Assembly (NCBI GenBank): GCA_964646795.1
Contig: CAZYHL010000001.1
Coordinates: 1 to 47,552, forward strand
Origin: an uncultured Syntrophomonadaceae bacterium
Lineage (GTDB): Bacteria > Bacillota > Dethiobacteria > PWVN01
Reading direction: 5' to 3'
Length of the DNA: 47,552 nucleotides
Shown: in pieces, positions 868-47,207 of the stretch
Position numbering within the stretch: the stretch's first letter is position 1
Layout: the number at the start of each line of letters is the position of its first letter
Program-made: the position numbers and the translations under genes
The notes under the pieces: model-generated
The model's input: only the letters and a program-made list of their open reading frames with translations
The model's database searches: none
What the model was told of the DNA's origin: nothing

Positions 868-892
868 AGTTCATACAAAATTTGTAGAGACT
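868..892. repeat. PAL25 copy (intergenic)
   Basis: agttcatacaaaatttgtagagact. The right end overlaps the minus-strand TAG stop (891-893) of 891..1091. It lies 17 nt upstream of the start at 850. Confidence 0.85.
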
Positions 893-1091
893 ATATTTGA
901 ATCGTAGGCCTCTTACTCTTAGCCCATTCTTGAAAGAGTTCTCTAACTTGCTCATAACAACTACGACATAAATCAGATGACTCTGGAACTAGGAAGTTTA
1001 ACTCTCCTGAAAGCTTCACCTTGAAATGGTCTGCAGGGCCAAGGATTTTATCTTGGCAAGCATCACATCGAACTCCATATTCCCTAGTCAT
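891..1091 (-). CDS. small 4-Cys zinc-ribbon protein (66 aa)
   Basis: Start revised to the ATG at 1091, with GAGGAGGAA 5 nt upstream. Sequence MTREYGVRCDACQDK...SDLCRSCYEQV carries CxxC...CxxC. Confidence 0.7.
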   Translation of the reverse strand: MTREYGVRCDACQDKILGPADHFKVKLSGELNFLVPESSDLCRSCYEQVRELFQEWAKSKRPTIQI

Positions 1092-1248
1092 CAGATTCCT
1101 CCTCTTCATTGTCATAGTCATCTAAGTCATAGATTTCTTCATCTGCAAAGCCATACTCTTCTATAGTACAAAGTCTACATAGAGTACGTTCACCTGCTTT
1201 GTAAAGTTTGTTTACAAATCTATCACATTCATCACAGAAACCTGCCAT
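1084..1248 (-). CDS. small zinc-ribbon protein with acidic tail (54 aa; below the ORF-track cutoff)
   Basis: Manual translation: MAGFCDECDRFVNKLYKAGERTLCRLCTIEEYGFADEEIYDLDDYDNEEEESDD. GGAGG from PAL25 copy 1255-1279 lies 7 nt upstream. ATGACTAG overlap with the next gene. Confidence 0.65.
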   Translation of the reverse strand: MAGFCDECDRFVNKLYKAGERTLCRLCTIEEYGFADEEIYDLDDYDNEEEESDD

Positions 1249-1254
1249 GGTTTA

Positions 1255-1279
1255 AGTTCCTCCAAATTTTGGATGGACT
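1255..1279. repeat. PAL25 copy (intergenic, CCTCC variant)
   Basis: agttcctccaaattttggatggact. On the minus strand the arm reads GGAGG and serves as the SD for the ATG at 1248. Confidence 0.85.
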
Positions 1280-1281
1280 AT

Positions 1282-1533
1282 TTAACCTTCTAATTTCTCA
1301 AGAGTTTTAGAATCATACTTTTGGCCATTACCTATGCCAAATATTCCATAAGTTACATTGTCAAAACACTTAGGACAAAATAGTCCCCAATGACCGCTTA
1401 TAGATCTAGCATCTGCAAACCAGTTAGTATTAGCTAAATCTACTTTGCATTCATCACAGGTATGAGGCCAACTACCTTCCCACTTCTTCTTTTCCATAAC
1501 TACCTCCACAATTAGATGAGTGTCTAAGCTCAT
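1282..1533 (-). CDS. small 4-Cys zinc-ribbon protein (83 aa)
   Basis: ORF track: CDECKVDLANTNWF...GLFCPKCF. Confidence 0.7.
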   Translation of the reverse strand: MSLDTHLIVEVVMEKKKWEGSWPHTCDECKVDLANTNWFADARSISGHWGLFCPKCFDNVTYGIFGIGNGQKYDSKTLEKLEG

Positions 1534-1537
1534 GAGA

Positions 1538-1681
1538 TTATCCTTTTAATGCAAGGAGCCACAACACCAAGTTGCCCAAACCTAACAAGGCGATAGTTAT
1601 TTTATATATAACTATCCGCCTATTCTGTTTTTCGTGAAAGTGTACTAGACGTATATAGTCTACGTGGTCGTTGAGTGACAT
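1538..1681 (-). CDS. possible 47-aa protein with hydrophobic C-terminus
   Basis: Manual translation: MSLNDHVDYIRLVHFHEKQNRRIVIYKITIALLGLGNLVLWLLALKG. Preceded by GGAGGATTAGTTATG, the same 15-mer as at 1804-1818. It contains the hairpin 1589-1620, so it may instead be non-coding. Confidence 0.35.
   Translation of the reverse strand: MSLNDHVDYIRLVHFHEKQNRRIVIYKITIALLGLGNLVLWLLALKG
1589..1620 (-). terminator. hairpin, possible attenuator/terminator inside the early operon
   Basis: ggcgatagttat / ataactatccgcc arms (one bulge) around an AT loop. Moderately T-rich flanks on both strands. Confidence 0.3.
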
Positions 1682-1692
1682 AACTAATCCTC

Positions 1693-1806
1693 CTACCAAT
1701 ATTTACTAATGAAATGCCAAACTACATAAGCAATAGTTCCAACTGTTGCTATCCATAAGGCTAGTGCAACTATGACTACTATAAGTGGAACATATATAGT
1801 TCTCAT
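1693..1806 (-). CDS. 37-aa hydrophobic micro-protein
   Basis: Manual translation: MRTIYVPLIVVIVALALWIATVGTIAYVVWHFISKYW. GGAGGATTAGTTATG context. Its stop TAG overlaps the next RBS. Confidence 0.5.
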   Translation of the reverse strand: MRTIYVPLIVVIVALALWIATVGTIAYVVWHFISKYW

Positions 1807-1808
1807 AA

Positions 1809-2195
1809 CTAATCCTCCATCTCAGGAATTTCCTCTACTTCACTCGGTAAAGGTACTTCCTCTACCTCTGGTAATACTATATTCATTTCCTTGAGCATGT
1901 TAGCTAATTCGTTAGCAGTGAGGCCACCTAAGTATTGCTTAGCCTCTTCAGCCTGATCTATCCTAGCCATCTTAGCATTGCGAATGCTTCTGGATGACTT
2001 GGCTTCTTCAATCCTCTGTAGTCTACCATCAACTTCTGCAAGTGCATAGTCTGCACGCTCAAACTCTGCCTTAGCATCTTCGTATTGCTTGAGGAAGGCT
2101 TCATAAGTAATGCGAATCCCTTCGTACATATCCTTTGTACGAACAAGCTCTTTCCAAGCTGCAGTGCGTCTAGTTTGTAATGTAGCTATATCCAT
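1809..2195 (-). CDS. hypothetical coiled-coil protein (128 aa)
   Basis: Start revised to the ATG at 2195 (MDIATLQ...), with GAGGAAGG 7 nt upstream. Confidence 0.7.
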   Translation of the reverse strand: MDIATLQTRRTAAWKELVRTKDMYEGIRITYEAFLKQYEDAKAEFERADYALAEVDGRLQRIEEAKSSRSIRNAKMARIDQAEEAKQYLGGLTANELANMLKEMNIVLPEVEEVPLPSEVEEIPEMED

Positions 2196-2197
2196 AA

Positions 2198-2404
2198 CTA
2201 TTCCTTCCTCTTCTGATTCAACCACAAAGGTTTCATTTCACTAAACTCACGATAACTACGCGATAGACAACAGATAATTGCTTCAGGTAGAGAACCCTTA
2301 AATTCCATCTCACTTGGATAATACTCTTTATGTTCTCTACCTGTATGAAGTAAGTGAGATGTGAGGTATGGATTGAGTGACTTTGAATTTGGATTAGTTG
2401 GCAT
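2198..2404 (-). CDS. hypothetical early protein (68 aa)
   Basis: ORF track. GAGGATGAATAATG context. The N-terminus MPTNPNSKSLNPYLTS is paralogous to the N-terminus of 318..539. Confidence 0.6.
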   Translation of the reverse strand: MPTNPNSKSLNPYLTSHLLHTGREHKEYYPSEMEFKGSLPEAIICCLSRSYREFSEMKPLWLNQKRKE

Positions 2405-2468
2405 TATTCATCCTCATGATACATTTTACCACAAGTCCCAACCAGTTGTCAAGAACTAATGAAGTGAA

Positions 2469-2493
2469 AGTTCATACATAATTTGTACGAACT
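2469..2493. repeat. PAL25 copy (intergenic)
   Basis: agttcatacataatttgtacgaact. The right end overlaps the minus-strand TAG stop (2492-2494) of 2492..3103. Confidence 0.9.
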
Positions 2494-3103
2494 ATTCAAT
2501 AGAACCTTTCTTCATATCCTCTAGTGACATTCCATCTAGAGTATTCATTAACTTCTTATCATTTTCAACAACTTGCTCAATTGTAGATTCTGAAATAAAG
2601 CCTTGTTCTTTATAGGCCTTAGTTCTAGCCAGTTTTTCTCTCTGCCCTTCCTCATACCTCTCTCTCTGTTTCTCAAGCCTAGCCCTATTATAGGCGTCCA
2701 TGTCTAGATCACTGCTAGGTGCTGGAACTACACTATGTTGATTATGTAGTATTGCATACGCCAAAGGATCAACCTGCTTAGGTTCATATCCTTCCTTCCT
2801 CATCATCTCGAATCTAGTAGCTGAAGCTATCTTCTTATACCCTCTTTTATCATTGCTAGCCTGAGTTAATCCATAGTCTATCATAAACTGCCTAGCACTG
2901 ACAAAGTCCAAGTCTTTCTTAATAGCTCCATTCTGCTCTAGAATATCAGATAGTAATTGCATACTCCAGTTAATTACCTGACTCACAGACTTAATCCTAG
3001 CACCTTCCCCTACCCAATATCTAGCTACTTCTGCCAGCGTAGTTAAATCTACTCTAGCTGACACACCTATACTACGTTCCTGTTTAATCTCATCTTCGTA
3101 CAT
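2492..3103 (-). CDS. hypothetical early protein (203 aa)
   Basis: ORF track. No motif recognised. Confidence 0.75.
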   Translation of the reverse strand: MYEDEIKQERSIGVSARVDLTTLAEVARYWVGEGARIKSVSQVINWSMQLLSDILEQNGAIKKDLDFVSARQFMIDYGLTQASNDKRGYKKIASATRFEMMRKEGYEPKQVDPLAYAILHNQHSVVPAPSSDLDMDAYNRARLEKQRERYEEGQREKLARTKAYKEQGFISESTIEQVVENDKKLMNTLDGMSLEDMKKGSIE

Positions 3104-3106
3104 AAT

Positions 3107-3337
3107 CTATTTATTCTCCTGAGTAAGTAAATAATGAGCTGCCATAATATTCCTGTATGTTAGCTCATCTTCAAATTGTTCTGGATAGTCACCTGATGCC
3201 TCAAGTGTATTTATTCTACTAAGCCAACAACTAGCTATCCTTTCCACTTCAGATAACCTAAGTGGAATAAACACAGTTTCATCATCAAACAACTGTACCT
3301 TAGCTATATGTCCTTTAGCCTCAACTCGCCACGCCAT
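3107..3337 (-). CDS. hypothetical early protein (76 aa)
   Basis: ORF track. First gene downstream of promoter 3545-3574. Confidence 0.7.
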   Translation of the reverse strand: MAWRVEAKGHIAKVQLFDDETVFIPLRLSEVERIASCWLSRINTLEASGDYPEQFEDELTYRNIMAAHYLLTQENK

Positions 3338-3544
3338 AGTTTCTCCATTATATTGTCATTCCATTATCATGTTATCCGTCACTCTATCCCGGTAGGCATA
3401 TTGCGATAATGGTATAATTGAGTAATGTTATAGCGTATAGTGTTATATCATTATCCCATTATACGTTATATATTTTTTTTATTACTCAATTATCTTGCTA
3501 CCCCCCTTTGGATAGCATAACACATAACACCATAATCAAATAAC

Positions 3545-3574
3545 ATCATAACATTACTACATACCAAATGTCAA
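3545..3574 (-). promoter_or_regulatory. sigma70-type promoter with extended -10 (early class)
   Basis: The minus strand reads TTGACA-tttggtatGTAGTAATGt-TATGAT (18-nt spacer). Confidence 0.6.
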
Positions 3575-3595
3575 TAACTACCTAACTACTCAAGA

Positions 3596-3618
3596 AAGAG
3601 GTAATCACACTACCTCTT
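3596..3618 (-). terminator. weak intrinsic terminator after 3645..4001
   Basis: 8-bp stem aagaggta/tacctctt with a 7-nt loop. The minus strand continues ttcttg. Confidence 0.4.
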
Positions 3619-3644
3619 GTCTTGAATAGTCGGTGCAAGACCTA

Positions 3645-4001
3645 TTACTTCTTAGGTCTGTCAAATCCAGTTAGAGCCTTAAACTCTTCATCAGAACAGG
3701 TTGCTAAATAGTTCTTAGCATTCTGTTTTTGGTCAACTGGAGTGCGTCCTCCCCTATAGTCCACAACTGTTACTCCAGACTGGATAGAGTTAAAGTTCTT
3801 ACGGGCACTAGCCTGCCAGTTGATGCGCTTATCCTTAAGGCTGGACTGGATGATATCAGAGAGTGGTATGCTGTCCAACTTGAAGCGTAACGTCCCTGTT
3901 TTCTTCTCTCTAGAGTCTTCATCACTCTTGATCGAAAACTCGATGTTAAACTCACCTGTTACACAATACTCACTCACTTTATCCTTAGCTATGTTATTCA
4001 T
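3645..4001 (-). CDS. hypothetical early protein (118 aa)
   Basis: Start revised to the ATG at 4001 (MNNIAKDK...), with AGGAG 5 nt upstream. The longer track ORF would run into PAL25 copy 4018-4042. Confidence 0.7.
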   Translation of the reverse strand: MNNIAKDKVSEYCVTGEFNIEFSIKSDEDSREKKTGTLRFKLDSIPLSDIIQSSLKDKRINWQASARKNFNSIQSGVTVVDYRGGRTPVDQKQNAKNYLATCSDEEFKALTGFDRPKK

Positions 4002-4017
4002 ACTCTCTCCTTTAAAT

Positions 4018-4042
4018 AGTCCATACATTTATTGTATGGACT
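4018..4042. repeat. PAL25 copy (intergenic, perfect 10-bp arms)
   Basis: agtccatacatttattgtatggact. Lies 16 nt upstream of the ATG at 4001. Confidence 0.9.
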
Positions 4043-4270
4043 GGTTATTGTTATCCACTCAATCCATCATATAGCCTCTCAACTCGTTTGTCAAGAGGCT
4101 AAATCATGAATCATTCAACGACTACTTCACAAACTACATACCAGTCACCTTGAATAGACTGGATTAGCTTACCAGGATATATTCTCTCTGGAAAGGATGT
4201 ATAGATCCTATGTACACTCTTTATTCCTGCTAGATGACCTTGCAGGTACATGATAGAATACTCTACATGC

Positions 4271-4372
4271 TTAAGCACGTTCCCACCTCCTATTCCTCCA
4301 ACTCCACTTCCATCCTTGAGACTTCATCCACTCGATGTACTTCCCGGTGTTCTTAATCAGGTTGTATCTCAT
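4271..4372 (-). CDS. possible 33-aa Trp/Arg-rich peptide, first ORF after the leftward promoter
   Basis: Manual translation: MRYNLIKNTGKYIEWMKSQGWKWSWRNRRWERA. Weak AAGGA RBS. Confidence 0.3.
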   Translation of the reverse strand: MRYNLIKNTGKYIEWMKSQGWKWSWRNRRWERA

Positions 4373-4412
4373 ATCCTATGTCCTTTCGTTCCAATTTGCT
4401 CGAACCATTACA

Positions 4413-4440
4413 ATCATACCACGCTGGCCATGTATGTCAA
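4413..4440 (-). promoter_or_regulatory. leftward sigma70-type promoter with extended -10
   Basis: The minus strand reads TTGACA-tacatggccagcgTGg-TATGAT (16-nt spacer). Confidence 0.65.
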
Positions 4441-4589
4441 GCTAATCGTGTAAATCATTTGTTTCCAACAATTTACGGCCAGATGGGGAAAATAGGCGCG
4501 GGAATGGGCTGGTTATGAGTCTCACATTTTGTCCCAACTATTAAACTTCGTACCAAATTGCACCATTAGTAACACTAACGAATGTGACG

Positions 4590-4614
4590 AGATTGTACAT
4601 TTTATGTATGAACT
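4590..4614. repeat. PAL25 copy in the divergent control region
   Basis: agattgtacattttatgtatgaact. Lies between the leftward (4413-4440) and rightward (4699-4782) promoters. Confidence 0.85.
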
Positions 4615-4698
4615 ATTTACGCTCATGCAGGGCAGCCTCCAGTGTGAAAGATAAGCTCTGCTTATCCTGCCAAATCCACCCAGATTAAAACGTTAAAG

Positions 4699-4727
4699 TT
4701 AGCAACTGTAGTAATGAGTACTATAGT
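4699..4727 (+). promoter_or_regulatory. rightward sigma70-like promoter (weaker -35)
   Basis: TTAGCA-actGTAGTAATGagtac-TATAGT (17-nt spacer). Contains the same GTAGTAATG box as the other early promoters. Confidence 0.45.
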
Positions 4728-4752
4728 ATGTCACTACGTACCAACTATTACA

Positions 4753-4782
4753 TTGACACATTAATTGCAGTAATGTTATCAT
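4753..4782 (+). promoter_or_regulatory. rightward sigma70-type promoter with extended -10 (early class)
   Basis: TTGACA-cattaattGCAGTAATGt-TATCAT (18-nt spacer). Lies about 80 nt upstream of the ATG at 4862. Confidence 0.6.
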
Positions 4783-4861: not shown

Positions 4862-5452
4862 ATGGCAACCGAACTTAATGACAAAGCAGATAGACAAAAC
4901 TTAATGTACGGTCAACTCATACGTGACTTCGATCAGCGTAGAGTTCCCAGGGAGGAACGTGGAACTTACGACATTAAACAGTTCTGGCAACGCCATCATG
5001 AAATCTGCAACCTAGCTGCCCAAGGTTACAAGCAAACAGATATTGCATACATCCTTGGGATCACTCCGCAGACAGTTTCCAACACCTTGAATTCGACATT
5101 AGGTGAAGAGAAACTTTCAGTAATCAGGGAAGAACGTGACCAAGATGCCAAGCGTACTGTGGAACGCATCCGAGTCCTTCGTGACAAAGCTCTTAAAGTC
5201 TATCAAGAGTTATTTGATGGCCAGGATGAAGATGGTAATCCTGTAGACTGTTCCATGGCTCAGCGTATCCACGCAGCTGACGTAGTCACTCTCGAACTCG
5301 CAGCTATGAAAGCCCCTACCAAGATCCAGGCCACATCCACCCACACTGTTCTCACAGGCGAAGAACTCCTTGCCATCAAGCAACGTGCCATTGATGAGGG
5401 CAAGAAGTGTGGGATGATAGTAGAAACTACCGCAGAGGAGGTCAAAGAGTGA
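4862..5452 (+). CDS. HTH DNA-binding protein (LuxR/GerE-like helix-turn-helix); regulator or small terminase candidate
   Basis: GYKQTDIAYILGITPQTVSNTL motif at about aa 55-76, followed by a charged coiled-coil region. First gene of the rightward arm. Confidence 0.5.
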   Translation: MATELNDKADRQNLMYGQLIRDFDQRRVPREERGTYDIKQFWQRHHEICNLAAQGYKQTDIAYILGITPQTVSNTLNSTLGEEKLSVIREERDQDAKRTVERIRVLRDKALKVYQELFDGQDEDGNPVDCSMAQRIHAADVVTLELAAMKAPTKIQATSTHTVLTGEELLAIKQRAIDEGKKCGMIVETTAEEVKE

Positions 5453-5892
5453 ACCAACGCACTATCGACCTCATCAAACAAAACGAAGGCTTCTCTGCCA
5501 CAGTCTATCTTTGCCCTGCAGGGTTTCATACAATAGGTTACGGCCACAACTGCGACGCTCACGGTGACCTCAATGCTTACATCAATCGCACTCTTTCTCC
5601 AGCAGAAGCTGATGATCTTCTTCTCTCCGATATAAGTGATGTTGAAAAAGATCTTACAAAATTTGTACGAACTTTTGATTCCCTAGATGAAGTACGCCAG
5701 GGTGTACTCATAGATATGTGCTTCAACTTAGGCATTGGTGGTCTGAAAAATTTCAAAAAATTTCTGAGACATTTGCTAGTTGGTAACTACAGATGGGCTG
5801 CACGTGAGATGTATGACTCTAAGTGGTTTAAGCAAGTCCCTCTTCGTGCCTCCAAGAATATGTTCATGATCCTCACAGGAGAATACTTCTAA
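5449..5892 (+). CDS. endolysin, GH24 (T4-type) lysozyme
   Basis: IDLIKQNEGFSATVYLCPAGFHTIGYGH matches the E..G..Y.D..G..TIGYGH lysozyme signature. GTG start in a GTGA overlap, preceded by GAGGAGG. Confidence 0.85.
   Translation: MNQRTIDLIKQNEGFSATVYLCPAGFHTIGYGHNCDAHGDLNAYINRTLSPAEADDLLLSDISDVEKDLTKFVRTFDSLDEVRQGVLIDMCFNLGIGGLKNFKKFLRHLLVGNYRWAAREMYDSKWFKQVPLRASKNMFMILTGEYF
5649..5673. repeat. PAL25 copy inside the endolysin CDS
   Basis: agatcttacaaaatttgtacgaact, coding KDLTKFVRT. Confidence 0.9.
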
Positions 5893-6734: not shown

Positions 6735-7190
6735 ATGAAGTCACTACTTCTTCTCCCATTCTTAGCAATTAATCTATTCGCAGGTGAAGTATGGCTAGCG
6801 TGGGATCCTTCTGAAACGTCAGAAGTTACTGGGTACAGAGTATATATAGGTACAGCTTCACGTAACTATTCTGGATTCAAAGATGCTGGAAACGCCCTCG
6901 AATACAAGGCCAAAGACCTTCCGAATGGAATAGTCCATTACTTCGCGGCGACCGCCTACGACGCCGACGGCAACGAAAGTGACTATTCCAATGAGGCCTC
7001 AACCAAAGTTATCACCTGCGACCTTAACAACGATAGTTCAGTAAATGTCCTTGATCTCCAGCTCATGATAAACCTTATCCAAACCAACCAGCTCACTCAA
7101 GCTCACGATCTTAACAAGGATAGTGTATTAAACATTCTAGATTTCCAAACTCTCATAAACGTCTTATCAGGAAAACAGTCGTGTCGATAG
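6735..7190 (+). CDS. secreted FN3 domain protein with C-terminal dockerin-like module
   Basis: Signal-peptide-like MKSLLLLPFLAINLFAGE. FN3 signature LAWDPSE..VTGYRVYIG...YFAATAYDADGNESDYSNE. Two dockerin-type repeats, DLNNDSSVNVLDLQLMINLI and DLNKDSVLNILDFQTLINVL. Confidence 0.7.
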   Translation: MKSLLLLPFLAINLFAGEVWLAWDPSETSEVTGYRVYIGTASRNYSGFKDAGNALEYKAKDLPNGIVHYFAATAYDADGNESDYSNEASTKVITCDLNNDSSVNVLDLQLMINLIQTNQLTQAHDLNKDSVLNILDFQTLINVLSGKQSCR

Positions 7191-7201
7191 GAAGTGAAAC
7201 T

Positions 7202-7474
7202 ATGGTCATAGCAAATGTTTCGTGTAGTGCAAACCCAGCTGAAGAAGCCATTACTGGGTATAACTTTTACCTCAACGGTGCAATCCAGGGAAACTCTCCC
7301 ATCCCTTCATTCACCATCGAGAATGTTCCTGCAGGGACTAATTCGTTTGAAGTCTCAGCTTTCAACCTCCTCGGGGAAGGTCCTAAGAGTGATCCATTCA
7401 TTCTGGCCGTCCCAGCAGGTGGGCCGTCCAAAACTGTCAATGTTCAAGTCACAGTGAGTGTAACCGTTTCCTAA
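7202..7474 (+). CDS. FN3/Ig-like domain protein (90 aa)
   Basis: ITGYNFYLNGA...FTIENVPAGTNSFEVSAFNLLGEGPKSDP. Start taken at the ATG at 7202 (the track gives GTG at 7181). Confidence 0.6.
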   Translation: MVIANVSCSANPAEEAITGYNFYLNGAIQGNSPIPSFTIENVPAGTNSFEVSAFNLLGEGPKSDPFILAVPAGGPSKTVNVQVTVSVTVS

Positions 7475-7788: not shown

Positions 7789-7799
7789 TTAAACGAACT
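7775..7799. repeat. degenerate PAL25 copy abutting the ATG at 7800
   Basis: agaccgttaaataattaaacgaact. The right arm and following bases (acgaactatgaa, 7793-7804) are repeated at 10683-10694. Confidence 0.5.
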
Positions 7800-39486: not shown

Positions 39487-39511
39487 AGTTTATACAAAAT
39501 TTGTAGGAACT
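39487..39511. repeat. PAL25 copy (intergenic)
   Basis: agtttatacaaaatttgtaggaact. The right end overlaps the minus-strand TAG stop at 39510-39512. Lies 10 nt upstream of the PolA ATG. Confidence 0.9.
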
Positions 39512-40835: not shown

Positions 40836-41050
40836 TCATCTTCTCCTATCAATTCTAACAACTCTTGTTTCATTTCATCTGTTAATTGTGTAAAGTCGAA
40901 AGTCTTAGCAGGCTTCGACTTGGATGGTGCTTTAGATGTGGATTTCTTAGTTTCTCTACGACGTAGGCGAGTTTGCCTTATGAGTTCTAAGGCCTCATCA
41001 TTGTCCATAGAGAGGATTGATTTGTAGGGTAGATCGTCAAGGTTGGACAT
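40832..41050 (-). CDS. hypothetical basic/acidic small protein (72 aa)
   Basis: ORF track. ATGA overlap with the methyltransferase start. Confidence 0.6.
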   Translation of the reverse strand: MSNLDDLPYKSILSMDNDEALELIRQTRLRRRETKKSTSKAPSKSKPAKTFDFTQLTDEMKQELLELIGEDE

Positions 41051-41306
41051 TTTTGTCCTCCATATCTTTAATTAACTCATCTGCATGTTTCATAGATTGA
41101 ATCAAGTCAGATGGTTTAACTAACTGTGCTGTCATAGCAACGATGAACTTGTCACCATGAAGTTCGATTTTATCTAGGACGTCATCTAGGATGATGCCGA
41201 ACAAGGCTTTCTTAACTCCGTGAGCATCCAAGAGACGTTCGACACGAAACTTTTGCTCTTCAGAGATTTCGAAACTAAAGCGGGGTTTGTAGTCTTCATT
41301 TGACAT
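41037..41306 (-). CDS. putative ribbon-helix-helix DNA-binding protein (89 aa)
   Basis: N-terminal PRFSFEISEEQKFRVERLLDAHGVKKALFGIILDDVL fits a beta-strand/helix/helix (Arc/CopG-like) pattern. Confidence 0.4.
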   Translation of the reverse strand: MSNEDYKPRFSFEISEEQKFRVERLLDAHGVKKALFGIILDDVLDKIELHGDKFIVAMTAQLVKPSDLIQSMKHADELIKDMEDKNVQP

Positions 41307-41814
41307 TGAAAGTCCTTATCTTTACAGAGGAGTATTCTATAATAAATTTTGAGTATTTATCATAGTTAGACTTCTCAAGGCATACTATTTCAACTATCCC
41401 TGCATTGATAATAGTACTAAAACAATTCTGACAAGGTATTACGGTGTTGAGGTAGAGAGTTGCATTGTTGGTATATACTCCAACTTTAGCAGCATTAGTT
41501 ATAGCATTCTCCTCAGCATGTTGAGCAGTGCAGAGTTCCATGGAGGTTCCAGATGGGAAGCCCAGGACTTTGCGTGGACAGCTTTGGGTGAAATCTTTAG
41601 GGGGTATTTGCCTAGCGGTAATTATGTATTGTAACTCTTGGTCTTTCACAAGTCTGTCGATTCCACAGTGAGGGATACCACGAGCAGGGCCGTTATAACC
41701 AGTGGATAACACAGAGTTATCTCTAACTATAATAGCCCCTATCTTACGAGATAAACAAGGGCTTTTGTGTGCAACAGCATTGCAGATGTCTAGGAAGTAA
41801 TTGTCCCAGTTCAT
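41296..41814 (-). CDS. dCMP deaminase
   Basis: HAEENAI zinc-binding motif and PCQNC motif with the correct spacing. Confidence 0.9.
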   Translation of the reverse strand: MNWDNYFLDICNAVAHKSPCLSRKIGAIIVRDNSVLSTGYNGPARGIPHCGIDRLVKDQELQYIITARQIPPKDFTQSCPRKVLGFPSGTSMELCTAQHAEENAITNAAKVGVYTNNATLYLNTVIPCQNCFSTIINAGIVEIVCLEKSNYDKYSKFIIEYSSVKIRTFNVK

Positions 41815-42125
41815 TACTTTATCCCTTCATCAATGAGACAGCCTTTGCATAGATAAGTGTAATTGCGGATGTCTCGAAGTTTCTCATCCCATTTAGCTGG
41901 AGTATAGCTCCATGGGTTTCTAGACATTTTAACTATAGACACCATATGCTTGACCATGAACCAGATGCAGGCTGTAGAAGAAGGTTCCATAGTCATGCCT
42001 GCTGCCTGTTTGAAATTCTCTAGACGTTCGTCATTAGTAGCATACTCCTCAGCTTTACCTATAAGCATTTCATGTGAGGCTTCGTTCTCTTCTAAGAAGA
42101 GGTTATTGAATTGTTCTGATGTCAT
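41814..42125 (-). CDS. DUF1599-like (nucleotide-modification-associated) protein
   Basis: The pattern Y..ND.L.NF......G......I...M.KH..S resembles DUF1599. GGAGG is supplied by PAL25 copy 42129-42153. Confidence 0.45.
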   Translation of the reverse strand: MTSEQFNNLFLEENEASHEMLIGKAEEYATNDERLENFKQAAGMTMEPSSTACIWFMVKHMVSIVKMSRNPWSYTPAKWDEKLRDIRNYTYLCKGCLIDEGIK

Positions 42126-42128
42126 TTA

Positions 42129-42153
42129 AGTTCCTCCAAAAATTGTATGAACT
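42129..42153. repeat. PAL25 copy (intergenic, CCTCC variant)
   Basis: agttcctccaaaaattgtatgaact. On the minus strand it reads GGAGGAACT, followed by TAA and then the ATG of 41814..42125. Confidence 0.9.
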
Positions 42154-42218
42154 TCCCGGCTAACTTGACCACACTGAAACAAGTTACTTACGTCTTGGAG
42201 TTACCCAAGAACCGGGAA
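42152..42218 (-). other. structured intergenic element (closing stem plus two internal hairpins)
   Basis: cttcccgg (42152-59) pairs with ccgggaag (42211-18). Internal stems are taacttg/caagtta and cttgg/ccaag. It is not tRNA-shaped. Confidence 0.4.
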
Positions 42219-42226
42219 GAGGTTAG

Positions 42227-42670
42227 TTAGTAACTATCCGCCTTAGCAGCCGATCCACTCTGCGGAACCACGTATTTGGAAATAAAGTTCTTATCCCCAA
42301 ACTCTTCGTCCTTCTGCACACCAAGAATAGCCCAGCCTTTCTTACCTGGGAGGTCGTCGAAGTTGAATTTCTTCAGATCGAGACCAAAGCAGGCAACGAA
42401 CTGCTGGAAGTTATAATTGTTCTTCTGCCGCTGTTTCTCGTCCAACTTGGCATTGTCCAGAGGGTTCCAAAAGAAGGCATTGAATTCCTTAGCCATTGGA
42501 TCACTGGGGACATCGAAGGAAGGCATAAACCAGCGGCAGTTATTCCTGTCACTGACACCTTCACGGATATTAGTGATGCGGATCTGCACTTCACTTCCCT
42601 TGTCAAGAATATGAGGTGCCGGTGCATCGAGGATTTCTTTTTCTACATTTGAAAAGTCCATAAAGCTCAT
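42227..42670 (-). CDS. putative ssDNA-binding protein (DUF669-like), partner of the Sak4-like ATPase
   Basis: 147 aa, immediately downstream of the AAA_24-type ATPase module as in many phages. Weak eye-level similarity only. Confidence 0.4.
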   Translation of the reverse strand: MSFMDFSNVEKEILDAPAPHILDKGSEVQIRITNIREGVSDRNNCRWFMPSFDVPSDPMAKEFNAFFWNPLDNAKLDEKQRQKNNYNFQQFVACFGLDLKKFNFDDLPGKKGWAILGVQKDEEFGDKNFISKYVVPQSGSAAKADSY

Positions 42671-42696
42671 ACTAGGTGTTCTCCTTGTTGGTTGTT

Positions 42697-42721
42697 AGTT
42701 TGTACAAATTTTGGATGAACT
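42697..42721. repeat. PAL25 copy (intergenic)
   Basis: agtttgtacaaattttggatgaact. The right end overlaps the minus-strand TAG stop at 42720-42722. Confidence 0.9.
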
Positions 42722-43094
42722 ATTCATCCTGTTCGTTTAAAAGCTTCTTAGCATTGAAGACTTCTTTGTCTTTAGTTAGCTTAGTTAGGCAAGCATCACA
42801 GATAAAACCTTCTTTATCTGTATATTCTTTTTCCCAACTATGCTTATGCGGATAGGTTCTATTGGTGCAGGACTGGATGTCAAATACTCCTTGGCACTGG
42901 CAACAGTTTACAATAGTCTCTTTAGTGTCTCTATCATAGACTGAGAATGATCCTTTGCCGTCAGTAAACCTAACTCCAGAATCAGATATTTTAACATCTG
43001 ACCCTTTAGCAAAGTCCATTAGAGCTTTGTCTCTGGACTGTACATCAGAAAACTCTATTCCAATATCTCCAATACGTAAGCCAAATTTTTTCAT
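42720..43094 (-). CDS. Cys/His-rich metal-binding protein (124 aa)
   Basis: CCQCQ....C......H.H ... CDAC cluster. Confidence 0.6.
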   Translation of the reverse strand: MKKFGLRIGDIGIEFSDVQSRDKALMDFAKGSDVKISDSGVRFTDGKGSFSVYDRDTKETIVNCCQCQGVFDIQSCTNRTYPHKHSWEKEYTDKEGFICDACLTKLTKDKEVFNAKKLLNEQDE

Positions 43095-43096
43095 AC

Positions 43097-43951
43097 TTAT
43101 TCTCCCTTGATAGTATCCAACCTAGGTTTATCCTCGTCAGGCATACCTACCTTACGAAGTAAAGACTTAATGTCTGCAGGTTCTTTGACGTTGAGCATGT
43201 TACTTCCCTTAAGACGAGAACGAGCTTGATACTCACCTTGAGCTTCTGTGAGTAAGTATCGTTCAAGTCCTCCAGGATGGTCTTCTGTTTGAAGTACATA
43301 GACTTCATCAAATAGAAGAGGGATGGTTATTACAGCTTTGCCAATTGTTAAGAAGCGATAGTTATCCTCAGTACGTCTGACCCCGGTTTTAGTATCCACT
43401 GCAAGAACCTTTTCTTTCTTATCAAGATGTCCAATAAGGAAGAAGTCACAAGGAATGGACATGAGTTTTTTGATATAGATCTGCATGTCATTCTTGACAG
43501 GGACGTAGTCTTTAGACCACTGAGGAACGCCACCATTTGTTTGGCCATACATAGCGGAAGCAGACCAGGAGGTTGCACTGTCAATAGCGTAGGTGCCGAA
43601 GTACTTGAAGTATCCAGTTTGGATACGATAGTCTACAGCTTTCTTCCATTTGGCAAAGCGGTCAGGGGAGAGAGGATCTTCATCTTCCCACTGGGTGTCA
43701 ACTATGATGTCGCCAGAATCTATCCACTTCTTAAGGCACTTTGTTCCGCCAGGATCGAAGCTGTCGATGTGAATAGGACGACGACAGCTACGGAGTAGGT
43801 AAGTCTTACCAGAACCAGATTCTCCAATAACTAATGCGCTAAATCGTTTTTGGAGGAAGTCCTGTTCGTAGTAAGTGCGAACTTTGTTGAGTTCGTTTAG
43901 GATGTTTGAGTTAGACAACTGATGCTTCCTTTCTAGGTTGAATAGCCTCAC
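43097..43951 (-). CDS. sak4: Sak4-like (AAA_24) RecA-fold recombination ATPase
   Basis: Walker A VIGESGSGKTYLL and Walker B-like FFLIGHLD. The start is uncertain: GTG at 43951, or TTG near 43918, because the upstream 52-aa ORF overlaps. Confidence 0.65.
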   Translation of the reverse strand: MRLFNLERKHQLSNSNILNELNKVRTYYEQDFLQKRFSALVIGESGSGKTYLLRSCRRPIHIDSFDPGGTKCLKKWIDSGDIIVDTQWEDEDPLSPDRFAKWKKAVDYRIQTGYFKYFGTYAIDSATSWSASAMYGQTNGGVPQWSKDYVPVKNDMQIYIKKLMSIPCDFFLIGHLDKKEKVLAVDTKTGVRRTEDNYRFLTIGKAVITIPLLFDEVYVLQTEDHPGGLERYLLTEAQGEYQARSRLKGSNMLNVKEPADIKSLLRKVGMPDEDKPRLDTIKGE

Positions 43952-44069
43952 TTAAACGCTTGTATAGAGCATGCTCAGCTACTCCATAAAGATGTACTGG
44001 AAGTATTTCAAGGACTTCAAATACTGTAACTATCTCTTCCCAAGAAAGTGTGAATGGTTCTTCTCCCAT
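43911..44069 (-). CDS. hypothetical 52-aa protein (below the track cutoff)
   Basis: Manual translation: MGEEPFTLSWEEIVTVFEVLEILPVHLYGVAEHALYKRLSEAIQPRKEASVV. AGGAG 6 nt upstream. Confidence 0.5.
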   Translation of the reverse strand: MGEEPFTLSWEEIVTVFEVLEILPVHLYGVAEHALYKRLSEAIQPRKEASVV

Positions 44070-44078
44070 TGTGGTCTC

Positions 44079-45080
44079 CTATTGTGGAAATGAAAGTTCA
44101 AGTTTAACTTTAGTTTCAGCCTCCTCAGGGTTCCAAAACTCTTCGCGGTATCCCAGTGGAGGATTACCACATCTTTGAAGTGGATTAGTCCATGATAAAC
44201 AGAAGTCATGGAAGGTACAGCCTCGATAGTCACCACAGGATTTAGGATTCTGCCTGAAGGCAAAGAGCAAGTTATCCTCTATGTTGCAGTGGTGAAGCCT
44301 ATCCATGTCTATCTCTAATTCATTAACTATCTCATTCACGTTCCAGAGCCAAGTGTTCATTTGGCTAGGATTCTTAAACGCTGGTACTCGCCTAAGAGTT
44401 GCATGATACCCTGCCGAACGAGCAGAACTGCCTCTAGAGAGGTACTCAAAGCCTGTTCCACAGAACTCTATGCCGAGTACATCTTCGATTGGATATAGAC
44501 AGTACAGGCAATGGGTGTAAGTTCCATTCTGGATTGAGAGATAGAATTGGTTTGCCCACTGGTCGTTATTGATATACTTGCCAGAAGTACTCTTATGATC
44601 CCAGGAGAAAATCTTCCTATCTTTCAATCTACGAATATGTGAGTCCATTTTGTAATGGAGTTTACGTTTCTCACTGATAGGAACAGTACCTGAGATTTCA
44701 GTGAGTTTTACACCGTCTTTTTCGACAACCTCGTAGTCAATTAGGTCATTGCTCCTTTCTTGGGCGAACTTGATGAGTGCCTTGAGAACGCCCATAGGTG
44801 TCTTCGGCTGATACATTTCATCAGTGGCTTCATCGAACTGGAGGCGGTAGTATTGGAGGAACTTGGTGAAGGCACCATCTACGTCGTTGTAGCCATATAA
44901 CAACTGGTGTTCACGAGCTATATGCCAAGCTTGGCCAAAATACAAGTCATGAGCTGGCAAGTCACGACGCCAGCCTAGAATGTGCTCGTAGAAGTACTTA
45001 CGAGGACAGGAGATATAGGTATCTAACTTAGATGAGTCATAGATATTCCACTCAGGTTTTGAGGTAAGAGGAAAAGTCAT
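44079..45080 (-). CDS. PD-(D/E)XK exonuclease, Cas4/RecB-like with C-terminal Cys cluster
   Basis: N-terminal ISCPRKYFYEHILGW motif. C-terminal C..YRGC.F.DFC cysteines typical of Cas4-like Fe-S nucleases. Confidence 0.75.
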   Translation of the reverse strand: MTFPLTSKPEWNIYDSSKLDTYISCPRKYFYEHILGWRRDLPAHDLYFGQAWHIAREHQLLYGYNDVDGAFTKFLQYYRLQFDEATDEMYQPKTPMGVLKALIKFAQERSNDLIDYEVVEKDGVKLTEISGTVPISEKRKLHYKMDSHIRRLKDRKIFSWDHKSTSGKYINNDQWANQFYLSIQNGTYTHCLYCLYPIEDVLGIEFCGTGFEYLSRGSSARSAGYHATLRRVPAFKNPSQMNTWLWNVNEIVNELEIDMDRLHHCNIEDNLLFAFRQNPKSCGDYRGCTFHDFCLSWTNPLQRCGNPPLGYREEFWNPEEAETKVKLELSFPQ

Positions 45081-45232
45081 TTTACCTCCACTATAACTAG
45101 TGGTCCTCTAGACTCATAGTAGATATCATCTACTAAGAATTCCTGACCTCCACTATCTTGAATCTCAACTGGTAAATCAAGGTCATCTTGACACTGGACT
45201 TTTAGCCTTCTAATGAGTTCAGCTATAGTCAT
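45077..45232 (-). CDS. hypothetical 51-aa protein (below the track cutoff)
   Basis: Manual translation: MTIAELIRRLKVQCQDDLDLPVEIQDSGGQEFLVDDIYYESRGPLVIVEVK. ATGA overlap with the nuclease start. Confidence 0.55.
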   Translation of the reverse strand: MTIAELIRRLKVQCQDDLDLPVEIQDSGGQEFLVDDIYYESRGPLVIVEVK

Positions 45233-45234
45233 AA

Positions 45235-45414
45235 CTATCCTTTCTTCATAAGTTGAATGTCTAGCAATTCTTGAGTGAGGCGGAGGATTCTTTGGTGTAA
45301 TTCTTCTATATAAAGAATAGAAGTATTCAACGATTCAGGAGGCAAGTTATCTTTCATTAGCTTACCTTTAAGTGCATCCCTCCTCCACTGGCGAAGAGTT
45401 CGTTCAGTTATCAT
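45235..45414 (-). CDS. hypothetical 59-aa protein (below the track cutoff)
   Basis: Manual translation: MITERTLRQWRRDALKGKLMKDNLPPESLNTSILYIEELHQRILRLTQELLDIQLMKKG. ATGA overlap with the upstream stop. Confidence 0.55.
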   Translation of the reverse strand: MITERTLRQWRRDALKGKLMKDNLPPESLNTSILYIEELHQRILRLTQELLDIQLMKKG

Positions 45415-45731
45415 TTCCCTAATCCTTTCTGTTTAACCAAGTTAGCCAAACCTTGAGGCATTTCGGTAGTTTTGACGGCATCACTAGAACGTCTATCTCC
45501 AGGATCGAAAGTAGGTGTTGGGTTTAGATCGTTCAATTTTTGTACGAACTTGCCGAATACAGGTGCAGGGACAGGATCTGGAGTGATACCAAGGGATTCC
45601 AAATCCTTAAATTCCTGACAGTTATGTGGAGAGACTAACATGATAACCTTCTCGGAAAGCTGAGCAGTGGCTTTGGTGGTTATCTTGAGTTCTACTCCAC
45701 ACTCGGAACATCGTAGTTTACGATCAGCCAT
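45411..45731 (-). CDS. hypothetical protein with N-terminal CxxC (106 aa)
   Basis: Start revised to the ATG at 45731 (MADRKLRCSECGVELK...), with AGGAG 7 nt upstream. The longer track ORF overlaps the HIRAN gene. Confidence 0.6.
   Translation of the reverse strand: MADRKLRCSECGVELKITTKATAQLSEKVIMLVSPHNCQEFKDLESLGITPDPVPAPVFGKFVQKLNDLNPTPTFDPGDRRSSDAVKTTEMPQGLANLVKQKGLGK
45526..45550. repeat. PAL25 copy inside a minus-strand CDS
   Basis: agatcgttcaatttttgtacgaact. On the minus strand it codes KFVQKLNDL. Confidence 0.8.
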
Positions 45732-45741
45732 TTTTGAACTC

Positions 45742-46188
45742 CTATTCATCATCTCTTTCGAGTAAGTTGTCTTTAGCAAAGTCTTCATTTTCAGTAAGTT
45801 CGTCAGGATCATCTGGCTCTTCATAGCCATCGTCGTCGAGATCATCAATCTCTTCTTCAGATAGAAGGTCCTCTTCCTCATTAAAGGTTTTAACTACTAC
45901 CTCACACTGATAAGACTTCTCTCCATTGGCAACTACGATGCAAATCAAAGGTTCGAGTTCCATAGCTACGGAGATTTCAGATGAGATTACTTTGGGAACG
46001 TAGCCTATGTGATGAGTATCTCCGAAGTCATCTTCGTAGATAATCTTGATGGCGTTAGGATCGTAGACATTAGTAGGCTCAGCCTCAAGTGAGAGAATCT
46101 GACCCTCCTCAAGACCTTTGACTAACTCTACTATATCACGACCTCGGTATTGAACACCAGCGATAAAGAACTTACGATTGACAGTCAT
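45742..46188 (-). CDS. HIRAN-domain protein with long acidic tail
   Basis: FFIAGVQYRG....L..G..L.LE.EPTN.YDPNAIKI......IGYVP is the HIRAN pattern. The C-terminal ~45 aa are Asp/Glu-rich. Confidence 0.65.
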   Translation of the reverse strand: MTVNRKFFIAGVQYRGRDIVELVKGLEEGQILSLEAEPTNVYDPNAIKIIYEDDFGDTHHIGYVPKVISSEISVAMELEPLICIVVANGEKSYQCEVVVKTFNEEEDLLSEEEIDDLDDDGYEEPDDPDELTENEDFAKDNLLERDDE

Positions 46189-46340
46189 TAGTTTTTCTCC
46201 TTTAGTTTAGTGTAAAAATCACCTTTGTACTCGATGGATTTTAGGTACTGTATAACACTGTAGGATTTACACTCGATAACTCCTCCAGCAGGGATGATGC
46301 CTGTTAAGTGGCATAGGAAATCTTTAAGCCAGTTACGCAT
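46188..46340 (-). CDS. hypothetical 50-aa protein (below the track cutoff)
   Basis: Manual translation: MRNWLKDFLCHLTGIIPAGGVIECKSYSVIQYLKSIEYKGDFYTKLKEKN. ATGCGTAA overlap with the ligase stop and TAATG overlap with the HIRAN start. Confidence 0.5.
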   Translation of the reverse strand: MRNWLKDFLCHLTGIIPAGGVIECKSYSVIQYLKSIEYKGDFYTKLKEKN

Positions 46341-47181
46341 TTACCTTAACCTCCACGAAGACAGGAAATCTAGGCACTTTCTTTCCTGAAGTTATATGCT
46401 GATACTTCACGGTGGCACGTTGTCCGATGATGAGGTCTCTTCCTTCCCAGAGTTGTTTTCTTCTATCATCTGTGAATCCTGTCCCAACATTGAAGACGTT
46501 ACCATCACCACTGCGACAGATAATAGCGCCGAGAGTATCTTTCGGCGTCCCATACTGGTCAACTTCTTCTTGGAATCCAATGATGTCATAGTCGTCCCGT
46601 TGTTTAGGTTTGAACTTCATTACTAAAGTTGAACGCTTACGTTCGTAGTAGTTTTCAATGTTACGGACTATGATACCTTCGTAGCCTTGGTTGATTAATG
46701 AGTCGTATACTCGAGTTATTTCGTCGAGATTATTGCATAAGAAGTAAGGAGACTTGACTAATGGTTCCTTGATGGCTAACTCTTTTAATTGAATAAGGCG
46801 CCGTGCCTGTATATCTTCATTGACTATGTCAAATACGTGATATTGCATAGATTGAAACTGAGGATGGAGGTTGACAGTGCGTGAGACTATTCCATGGACA
46901 AGTTCATGATTCATTCCGTGACAATACAACTCTCCATCAAGTTCAGATGGTAAATTTATACTGTTGTCATCTAAGTACTGATTAATGTGTGGACATGAAG
47001 ATATGATGTTTTCCTCAGATGACAACAGAATGAAGTTACCACTTGCGAGCTTGACAGCTCTACATCTATCACCGTCGTACTTCGGCTGTACTATATATGG
47101 TGGAGACCATTTAGCTAAACGCTTCTCCTCGAATGGATAACACTTCATGATGTTCTTCCATCGTTGCCACTGTTCGCCCAC
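46333..47181 (-). CDS. ATP-dependent DNA ligase
   Basis: Motif I KYDGDR, motif III LDGELY, motif IV EGIIVR, motif V MKFKPK. The start is probably GTG at 47181, 5 nt after the GGAGG supplied by PAL25 (the track start at 47193 lies inside the element). Confidence 0.9.
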   Translation of the reverse strand: MGEQWQRWKNIMKCYPFEEKRLAKWSPPYIVQPKYDGDRCRAVKLASGNFILLSSEENIISSCPHINQYLDDNSINLPSELDGELYCHGMNHELVHGIVSRTVNLHPQFQSMQYHVFDIVNEDIQARRLIQLKELAIKEPLVKSPYFLCNNLDEITRVYDSLINQGYEGIIVRNIENYYERKRSTLVMKFKPKQRDDYDIIGFQEEVDQYGTPKDTLGAIICRSGDGNVFNVGTGFTDDRRKQLWEGRDLIIGQRATVKYQHITSGKKVPRFPVFVEVKVNA

Positions 47182-47182
47182 C

Positions 47183-47207
47183 AGTCCCTCCAAATTATGT
47201 ATGAACT
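47183..47207. repeat. PAL25 copy (intergenic, CCTCC variant)
   Basis: agtccctccaaattatgtatgaact. Supplies the GGAGG for the ligase gene on the minus strand. Confidence 0.85.

Follow-up and report, generated by a model that had tools for sequence, protein, structure and literature searches.

The 47,552-nucleotide (nt) stretch of DNA analyzed here, called the window throughout (contig CAZYHL010000001.1 of GenBank assembly GCA_964646795.1, deposited as an uncultured Syntrophomonadaceae bacterium), is a phage genome with two arms, one on the minus strand (1-4278 and 35120-47552) and one on the plus strand (4250-34963). A 25-bp palindrome, PAL25, is scattered over both. We propose that its roughly 24 copies are dispersed parS-like DNA sites, and that they are probably read by a protein of the phage itself, a fusion of a ParB-like domain, a helix-turn-helix (HTH) motif, and a DNA methylase. 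That this fusion physically binds PAL25, and does so as a dimer, is what we infer from the sequence comparisons set out below. The proposed reader and its HTH are located as follows.

39510-40835, minus strand: proposed trans-acting reader, 441 amino acids (aa), with a predicted ParB N-terminal nucleoside triphosphatase (NTPase) fold (GGRR, ENLYRKE), a ParB/Noc-type HTH, and a beta-class N6/N4 DNA methylase (DPPY, FLGSG)
40356-40436, minus strand: HTH of the fusion, residues 134-160, GWGTKETAEAIGAKSRTEVSEALKRAQ; S148 and R149 correspond to nt 40389-40394

Dispersed copies of PAL25

The window was searched with the pattern AGWYCNTMCA-W5-TGKANGRWCT, and dinucleotide-preserving shuffles of the window served as the null. 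There were 14 exact matches versus 0.00 expected and 23 matches with three or fewer mismatches versus 0.08 expected, the largest count in any shuffle being 1, so hit counts like those of shuffled sequence were not seen. All 22 starts listed in a preliminary description of this DNA are among the 23, and the remaining one is an additional copy at 26371-26395 with two mismatches. The degenerate copy noted earlier at 7775 was recovered with the outer-arm pattern and brings the total to about 24. Every copy is exactly 25 nt long, as had been claimed. The repeated 25-bp palindrome is real. Conservation covers the 25 nt themselves and a weak AAT directly upstream; nothing is conserved more than 3 nt upstream, and no -35-like element, sigma70-type promoter, or other flank signal was found beside the copies.

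Strict half-site matches numbered 39 in the window. Thirty-seven of these were arms of full copies, and the two isolated ones (13586 and 44853) are at chance level (2.07 expected). The half-sites previously suggested at about 15717, 22045, and 8527 did not match the half-site pattern and have to be dropped. PAL25 half-sites thus occur essentially only as pairs. The density is about one site per 2 kb of the window, and the spacing is more even than random (coefficient of variation [CV] 0.59, P 0.005). The asymmetry between right and left arms of the element is only weak, and there is no orientation signal.

A probable DNA site rather than an RNA hairpin

The two arms of the palindrome vary independently of each other. 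Among the window copies, position 3 forms an A.A opposition in seven, position 6 is usually mismatched, and the pairs at position 8 are A-T in 14, A-G in 6, C-T in 2, and C-G in 1, with compensatory changes absent. Across 310 oriented copies from the wider phage family described below, positions 3 and 12 are near-random W/W, position 5 is Watson-Crick in only half, and mismatches on the sense strand are A.C in 222 cases versus G.U in 114. When 20 window copies were folded as RNA, the median was about -3.4 kcal/mol; 13 folded at -4 kcal/mol or weaker, two were unfolded, and three reached -10 to -13 kcal/mol. What is under selection is the sequence of each half-site and the fixed spacing between the two, not pairing. 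Independent arms, poor folds, and half-sites found only in pairs point to a DNA site for a protein dimer and not to a hairpin.

The preliminary description had also considered an RNA hairpin, and in its broadest form this would be an element of the polycistronic mRNA used for RNase III-like processing, 3'-end stabilization, or stop-start translational coupling. The copies are indeed transcribed, many lie between stop and start codons, some contain a Shine-Dalgarno (SD) sequence within the right arm, and three fold well. However, the weakness of most folds, the lack of compensatory change, and the family-wide excess of A.C over G.U all speak against it, one third of the copies are intragenic, and a 10-bp stem is short for RNase III. 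Neither an Rfam family nor a tRNA was matched in the window. We therefore consider a hairpin function very improbable.

Lineage-specific palindromes in related phages

At the DNA level, a megablast search with 25 kb of the window against 50,697 phage records gave no match, and an exact IMG/VR scan for the right half of PAL25 gave single chance hits only. The nearest deposited genome is that of Desulfofustis phage LS06-2018-MD01 (locus L001), whose polymerase is 46% identical. It lacks PAL25 and has nine 25-bp copies of GCTATGTCCCAA-N-TTGGGACATAGC at gene boundaries. About 100 related loci were gathered from IMG/VR scans with the capsid protein and polymerase alignment, and palindromes were sought in them de novo in a 12+1+12 format, for which shuffled sequences give families of 2 to 4. 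A locus-specific family of at least four copies was present in 55 loci (367 copies, 2 to 6 per 10 kb), and in most of the other related loci the palindromes were more degenerate or slightly asymmetric. In all, nearly all of some 80 related uncultured phage contigs carry a 25-bp (12+1+12) palindrome of their own, with the length fixed at 25 bp, and the positions are syntenic. The check proposed in the preliminary description, a search of related phage genomes for the element and its synteny, therefore came out in its favor.

The inner sequence is lineage specific. Close relatives have the outer AG..CT in common but not the interior, and more distant ones differ throughout, as in the following examples.

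Close relative: AGTTCGTTTAAT-N-ATTAAACGAACT
Close relative: AGTTAATTAAAT-A-ATTTAATTAACT
Close relative: AGATCGTTCAAA-A-TTTGAACGATCT
Close relative: AGTCCGTAAAAT-T-ATTTTACGGACT
Distant relative, different throughout: CCTATGGAACAA-A-TTGTTCCATAGG
Further example from a relative: AGTTAATTAAATAATTTAATTAACT

All copies change in concert between lineages. The junction upstream of the polymerase gene has a site in 30 of 51 loci, most of them 8 to 19 nt before the polymerase start. Sites also recur before a few other genes, and almost never before the methylase, ATPase, nuclease, or primase genes. One third of all family copies are intragenic, versus about 93% coding sequence, and the mean CV of the spacing is 0.48 across 32 loci. 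In the close relative L119 (84 to 90% nucleotide identity), three homologous copies are kept, two of them identical at 25 of 25 positions. The third, homologous to the copy at 45526, lies in a stretch that is only 64% identical, has three differences, and fits the degenerate consensus exactly. This retention, taken with the even spacing, indicates that PAL25 sites are under selection.

Dispersed, short, lineage-specific palindromes that lie mostly between genes might also be selfish elements, similar to repetitive extragenic palindromes (REP), that spread within each genome and do nothing for the phage. However, the scanned proteins yielded neither a Y1 transposase nor one of another type, and syntenic positions are retained across relatives while the sequence changes in concert. 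Intragenic copies lie in frame within conserved genes and are kept in divergent relatives, and the length stays fixed at 25 bp across about 80 genomes. An origin of this kind seems to us extremely unlikely.

Three side observations concern individual relatives. In locus L084 (copies at 4305, 5981, 9808, 13385, and 20608), the element is clearly asymmetric, CTATGGTTAAA-wwTTT-TACGGAG, which hints at two unlike half-sites or at a specificity that is drifting. Within a gene annotated as "capsid protein" (31110-33392), the Desulfofustis phage contains tandem repeats of 42 nt and 132 nt (31674-32318). Locus L119 carries a HIRAN-domain gene (166-576) where the window has other small open reading frames (ORFs) (about 45900-46100), a gene replacement beside a conserved palindrome copy.

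Covariation with a ParB-HTH-methylase fusion

The 441-aa fusion matches Pfam ParB_N (PF02195, E 3.3e-7) and N6_N4_Mtase; the Pfam HTH_ParB model gave no hit to it. By phmmer, residues 18-202 match the Noc structures 7ng0 and 7nfu (E 2.4e-10) over a range that spans the ParB/Noc HTH region, and the C-terminal half matches methylases of the CcrM/DpnA type. Box II (GxRR), box III (ENxxR), the HTH scaffold, DPPY, and FxGSG vary little or not at all among 50 homologues. The RR pair is present in 48 of 48 and E-N-x-x-R in 49 of 49, and the conserved HTH scaffold comprises G134, T140, V/I152, S153, A155, K157, and R158.

Covariation was measured as the mutual information between every variable protein column and every variable motif position, over 2055 variable columns from 13 conserved protein families in 48 nonredundant loci. 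The two top columns of the 2055 are neighbors in the fusion, S148 and R149, where the HTH recognition helix begins, and they covary with motif positions 5-7 (z 11.2 and 11.1, compared with 8.3 for the next best column and 6.9 for the 99th percentile). Residue 149 follows a simple correspondence with the motif.

K149: motif positions 5-7 YGT, 24 of 24
D149 or N149: motif positions 5-7 AAT or GAT, 10 of 10
Q149: motif positions 5-7 xCA, xAA, or ATA, 5 of 5

Variants of the whole recognition helix go together with motif variants in the same way: SKAT..Q/L with GTTTAAT, TDAS..T with ATTAAAT, and S(R/P)TE..E with GT(A/C)CAAA. Among hold-out loci outside the derivation of the rule, 14 of 15 K149 proteins were accompanied by YGT. 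In locus L114, whose fusion has the TDAS..T helix, the predicted AATTAAAT class was found in two copies versus 0.00 expected, one of them directly before the polymerase gene.

In Caulobacter ParB, the specificity residues 173, 179, 184, and 201 are experimentally established, and R173, like Q158 of Noc, contacts the outermost base of the parS or Noc-binding site (NBS) half-site (PMC7383237). By our own alignment, residue 149 of the fusion would be the counterpart of Noc Q158 and ParB R173. A contact of that residue with the outermost half-site base would fit a 17-bp, parS-sized core at motif positions 5-21. A natural knockout also exists. In locus L096 (21.6 kb), whose polymerase is 67% identical, the ParB-methylase gene is missing from its place between p72 and the polymerase gene. 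Of the long loci in the close family, this one alone showed no palindrome family above shuffle level.

Several points weigh against the fusion as reader. Shared ancestry was handled by an empirical null over the other proteins, which is not tree aware, and in locus L111 a K149 protein is paired with CAT, the one hold-out exception. L096 is a single case, with 10.7 kb of its contig lying outside the part examined. No confident palindrome family was found in the distant loci L104, L105, L107, and L109, all of which have the ParB-methylase, and none above shuffle level in the cultured Microcystis phage Mel-JY34, which has a full-length homologue at 24% identity. The fusion has a methylase where the canonical ParB C-terminal dimerization domain would be. 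The element, at 25 bp, is longer than the 16-bp parS, and its outer AGWY/RWCT flanks are not accounted for by a parS-like model. Finally, the preference for particular junctions, 8 to 19 nt before certain starts, could mean a direct role in gene expression.

Other candidate readers

An operator array for a dimeric phage regulator had been suggested before, with an HTH protein (4862-5452) and a ribbon-helix-helix (RHH)-like protein (41037-41306) as candidates. The kind of system fits what we observe, namely, independent arms, paired half-sites, and a coevolving protein; the two named candidates do not. The HTH protein is a homologue of the annotated small terminase subunit of the Desulfofustis phage, and a peptide-pattern scan found no relatives of it.

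The 89-aa RHH-like protein is conserved in 47 of 55 loci with the pattern PRFSFEI, helix, Gly, helix, which by eye we take to resemble a ribbon-helix-helix. Its covariation with the motif does not stand out (best column z 7.1), and nothing ties it to the sites. The presumed DNA-facing residues R9 and E13 are invariant while the motif changes. The gene is present in L096, which has no palindromes, and was undetected in the distant site-bearing relatives L111 and L116. A profile search of PDB gave a best, irrelevant hit at E 0.05, and an AlphaFold2 (AF2) model with helices only (predicted local distance difference test [pLDDT] score 80) had no Foldseek hit in PDB. We do not favor it as the reader. 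Protein p147 (42227-42670), which had the highest partial Mantel value, was set aside; its sequence pattern looks like that of an OB-fold single-strand-binding protein. Whole-protein partial Mantel and analysis of similarities (ANOSIM) comparisons with motif distance or class gave R of 0.27 to 0.47 for six proteins and did not discriminate among them; discrimination came only from the column-level test.

It is conceivable that some other dimeric or tetrameric regulator, the RHH-like protein or a fast-evolving early protein, uses PAL25 as an operator or "stoperator-like" array to gate transcription of the long operons. Palindromic sites with independent half-sites would suit such a protein, as would the broad conservation of the 89-aa candidate and its RHH-like pattern, and sites do lie 8 to 19 nt before selected genes. 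The confinement of sigma70 promoters to 273-4782 (see below) makes read-through operons in need of internal control plausible. Against this stand the invariance of R9 and E13, the distribution of the gene, and the lack of a fold match for its model. Moreover, no integrase or repressor was found in the window and no lysogeny genes were seen, and no integrated prophage was found across 185,579 genomes. We judge a regulator other than the fusion unlikely.

Position of the copies relative to genes and signals

The individual copies are located as follows.

868-892: gene boundary; outer 2 nt within the stop of ORF 891-1121 (minus strand)
1255-1279: intergenic; right arm in sense orientation, TGGAGGAACT, with SD-like GGAGG, 6 nt before ATG
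2469-2493: gene boundary; the -35 of a consensus sigma70-like promoter (2452-2423, minus strand) follows 16 nt downstream
4018-4042: perfect 10-bp arms; just downstream of a promoter-like site (4094-4066, minus strand)
4590-4614: divergent promoter region between the two genome arms
5649-5673: within lysozyme ORF 5407-5892
7775-7799: degenerate, AGACCGTTAAATAATTAAACGAACT; abuts the ATG at 7800; similar to CGTTAAAT-type variants of relatives
8949-8973: within radical-SAM/glycosyltransferase ORF 8525-10666
10665-10689: gene boundary; overlaps a TAG stop; ATG abuts at 10690
12603-12627: gene boundary
16451-16475: 9 nt upstream of the portal start; this junction has a lineage-specific palindrome in L001, L020, L026, and L029
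17077-17101: within the portal ORF
18699-18723: gene boundary
21290-21314: junction of the major capsid gene with the gene that follows; palindromes of L020, L026, L027, and L029 are syntenic with it
23067-23091: within ORF 22909-24882
26371-26395: within ORF 25334-26434; two mismatches
29869-29893: within the 2034-aa ORF
34066-34090: within the 2034-aa ORF
34962-34986: end of the plus arm; a conventional terminator (34988-35021) comes next
39487-39511: after the ParB-methylase stop, before the DNA polymerase start, the junction with a site in 30 of 51 related loci
42129-42153: intergenic; identical at 25 of 25 positions in L119
42697-42721: gene boundary; identical at 25 of 25 positions in L119
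45526-45550: within ORF 45411-45881; intragenic site in 11 of 13 homologous ORFs of relatives
47183-47207: upstream of the DNA ligase gene

About 16 copies thus lie at gene boundaries, which bears out the between-gene placement described before, and eight lie within long ORFs (5649, 8949, 17077, 23067, 26371, 29869, 34066, and 45526). The intragenic copies are translated in two different frames and so encode no conserved peptide. The nine overlaps with TAG stops reported earlier are consistent with the ORF ends. Over the whole family, 64 of 310 copies have TAG and 73 of 310 its mirror image CTA, so the link between TAG and the element is peculiar to this genome.

The overlap of copies with stops, SD sequences, and starts is best explained by lack of room, with a 25-bp palindrome crowded into intergenic gaps that are very short. 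A palindrome of this length is hard to encode within a protein, and sites would for that reason pile up in the gaps, with stop and ribosome-binding-site "punctuation" as a by-product. A pattern of gene punctuation can therefore arise simply because long palindromes fit only between genes.

PAL25 does not have the GC-rich stem followed by a T tract that defines an intrinsic terminator. Even a lax terminator pattern was matched only at 4018 and, on one strand, at 29869, and the earlier statement that no T tract follows the copies holds. The sole real terminator, at 34988-35021, looks conventional and closes the plus arm.

At 273-4782 there is a cluster of six sigma70-type promoters close to consensus. 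Each has an exact TTGACA and 11 of 12 matches, and in five the -10 is extended by TG. Five of the six run along the minus arm and one (4753-4782) into the plus arm. None of comparable quality was found elsewhere in the window. The presence of these promoters implies that the host probably has canonical sigma70 promoters. The small early ORFs in this region have no homologues in relatives.

The absence of strong sigma70 promoters outside 273-4782 raises the question of whether PAL25 is itself a middle or late promoter, for a phage-modified host RNA polymerase or for an unrecognized phage enzyme, perhaps in the form of an extruded DNA hairpin as in phage N4. Its copy number and its position just upstream of SD sequences resemble promoters of the T7 type, the center is AT rich, mismatches on the template strand are biased to G.T, and the 2034-aa protein at the end of the virion arm is unannotated. 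However, near-perfect dyad symmetry gives the element no direction. In some copies the SD sequence lies within the right arm, and transcripts must therefore start upstream of the copy. Copies also occur midway in long genes, about one third of those in the window have inner-stem mismatches, and independent variation of the arms speaks against an N4-type hairpin. As the preliminary description had already remarked, no phage RNA polymerase is recognizable; neither an RNA polymerase nor a sigma factor was found among the approximately 45 proteins scanned. A promoter function is thus highly unlikely.

Proposed mechanism and significance

If the fusion reads PAL25, the two HTHs of a dimer would each occupy half of the 17-bp core (motif positions 5-21), and the 4-bp outer flanks AGWY/RWCT would provide a further conserved contact. 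Sites would be required at a fairly even density of about one per 2 kb. PAL25 copies could then act as loading points, from which the NTP-gated ParB module would clamp onto the DNA and slide a kilobase or two each way, dragging a low-specificity N6-adenine methylase along phage DNA only. DNA bearing the private "postcode" of the phage would in this way be rapidly and fully methylated in cis and protected from restriction, while host DNA would be spared. Site and reader would coevolve within each phage lineage, which would leave the specificity free to diversify.

Our preference for such site-loaded self-marking in cis, an antirestriction methylation, is tentative, and we regard it as possible, not as established. 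We favor it because the NTPase motifs, the HTH, and the catalytic motifs are all conserved, because sites are even genome-wide, including inside long genes where the gaps would otherwise be largest, and because they have no consistent relation to promoters. The main alternative keeps the same protein-site pair and gives it a different task, a global control of transcription of the two long operons like that exerted by KorB. The recurrent placement of sites just before certain genes would fit this; the even, promoter-independent distribution and the conserved catalytic motifs are what incline us toward cis-methylation, and we hold a KorB-like role to be somewhat less likely.

Phages and plasmids often carry ParB-fold proteins that are either fused to a DNA-modifying enzyme or partnered with one. 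The window and its approximately 80 relatives supply candidate cognate sites, a one-residue specificity rule, and a natural knockout. If the proposed binding is true, it would provide a first testable job for the widespread class of phage ParB-methylases and an instance of a ParB-parS-like system reused across a whole lytic phage genome. It would also offer orthogonal protein-site pairs for DNA-labeling tools of the ParB/parS type and an explanation for dispersed palindromes in other phages. Cis-methylation, if true, might further explain the repeats of Cluster O mycobacteriophages and many phage ParB-enzyme fusions.

Gene content of the phage

The minus arm holds small early genes and the replication module. 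The genes recognized on the two arms are listed below.

Minus arm: DNA ligase, PD-(D/E)XK nuclease, AAA_24 ATPase, dCMP deaminase, and the ParB_N and N6_N4 methylase fusion
Minus arm, continued: 849-aa DNA polymerase and DUF3987 primase
Plus arm: small-terminase homologue, lysozyme, holin, glycosyltransferases, and a radical-SAM/B12/GT2 fusion
Plus arm, continued: large terminase, SU10-type portal and capsid protein, and a 2034-aa protein without family hits

No ParA-like ATPase came up in the set of proteins that was scanned, AAA_24 being the one hit of that kind. With respect to the host, the 185,579 genomes yielded just phage-sized or short contigs of metagenome-assembled genomes, in inconsistent bins.

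Some regions of the window stand apart. Between the lysis genes and the terminase, a cassette (6735-10666) has no homologues in related loci. Its genes are given here.

6735-7190: dockerin-domain protein
7800-8543: GT2/GT92 glycosyltransferase
8525-10666: 713-aa fusion of B12-binding, radical-SAM, and GT2 glycosyltransferase domains

The region 13000-16000 is an island with a G+C content of 0.51 to 0.52 versus about 0.42 elsewhere. It includes a 663-aa ORF (14005-15996) without a Pfam or PHROG hit and without a homologue in any related locus, and it may be a recent acquisition. The 2034-aa ORF at the end of the virion arm (28859-34963) likewise has no Pfam or PHROG hit. Relatives have giant ORFs that share 25 to 41% identity with it (that of the Desulfofustis phage is 1577 aa long), and the product of the window ORF might conceivably be an ejected or virion-associated enzyme. 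The replication module contains a MazG-like pyrophosphohydrolase (36523-36831, a weak hit) and the dCMP deaminase (41296-41814). Together with the methylase and the glycosyltransferases, these hint at an altered nucleotide or DNA chemistry.

Comparison with known systems

Several classes of dispersed phage or bacterial elements resemble PAL25 in part. The stoperators of Cluster A mycobacteriophages, one of the precedents named in the preliminary description, are apt as an analogy only, being tens of short sites, mostly at gene boundaries near stops and starts, that are bound by a phage protein, as we propose for PAL25. They differ in being asymmetric sites of 13 to 14 bp that follow the direction of transcription and are recognized by the immunity repressor of a temperate phage, whereas PAL25 is symmetric. 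The RNase III hairpins of T7 are likewise intergenic elements that punctuate long operons, but they have long irregular stems conserved as structure; the stems of PAL25 are at most 10 bp, mostly unstable, and without covariation. Unlike the palindromes mobilized by REP-associated tyrosine transposases (REP/RAYT), PAL25 comes with no transposase that we could find, and its copies are syntenic and in frame within conserved genes. PAL25 lacks a defining feature of each of these three classes, and one of intrinsic terminators as well.

A closer parallel is found in Cluster O mycobacteriophages, which contain a 17-bp dyad repeat, TGTTCGGNNNCCGAACA, in 34 copies in Corndog and of unknown function (PMC4351075). 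The copies are both intergenic and intragenic and show no orientation bias, and the authors inferred that a dimer binds them and that their role is not in transcription initiation; a protein with a ParB-like domain, gp90 in Corndog, is encoded by these phages as well (PMC4351075). Like PAL25, this is a dispersed palindrome in an apparently nontemperate phage, and its 17 bp equal the length of the PAL25 core. It differs in that sequence and lineage are unrelated, there are no 4-bp outer flanks, and no link to ParB was proposed. The Cluster O palindrome, TGTTCGG-NNN-CCGAACA, shares the outer TGTT..AACA with what we take to be the canonical parS consensus. PAL25 and the Cluster O repeats are a phenomenological class and not a homologous family. 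By analogy, the Cluster O repeats and gp90 may be the same kind of system.

Phage fusions of a ParB CTPase fold with an N6_N4 methyltransferase share the PF02195 plus PF01555 architecture of our candidate reader. In a 2025 survey this architecture was frequent in phages and prophages and its role was not known (PMC12704722). Cognate DNA sites for such a fusion are reported neither there nor in a 2026 study, in which the direction of modification enzymes to loci by ParB homologues is still experimentally unconfirmed (PMC12704722, PMC13229309). Unlike the surveyed fusions, the one described here comes with a candidate site array.

The systems nearest in kind are ParB-parS, Noc-NBS, and KorB-OB. 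The differences from them are that a methylase takes the place of the dimerization domain, that no ParA was seen, that PAL25 is 25 bp long (a 17-bp core with conserved flanks of 4 bp) and bears no sequence relation to parS, NBS, or OB, that its carrier is an apparently lytic phage, that the density of sites is far higher, and that there are many specificity classes in one phage family. The Bacillus subtilis chromosome has about 70 NBS, and RK2 has 12 OB sites. Without the dimerization domain and a ParA partner, the PAL25 system would not be a partition system. Nevertheless, the fusion combines a predicted ParB N-terminal fold, including the arginines of boxes II and III, with an HTH of the ParB/Noc type, and its proposed sites are palindromes of the dimer type, many of them scattered over one replicon. 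Judged from these sequences, the characteristic set of a ParB-parS-type system (fold, HTH, palindromic site, and specificity residue) appears to be present in this phage.

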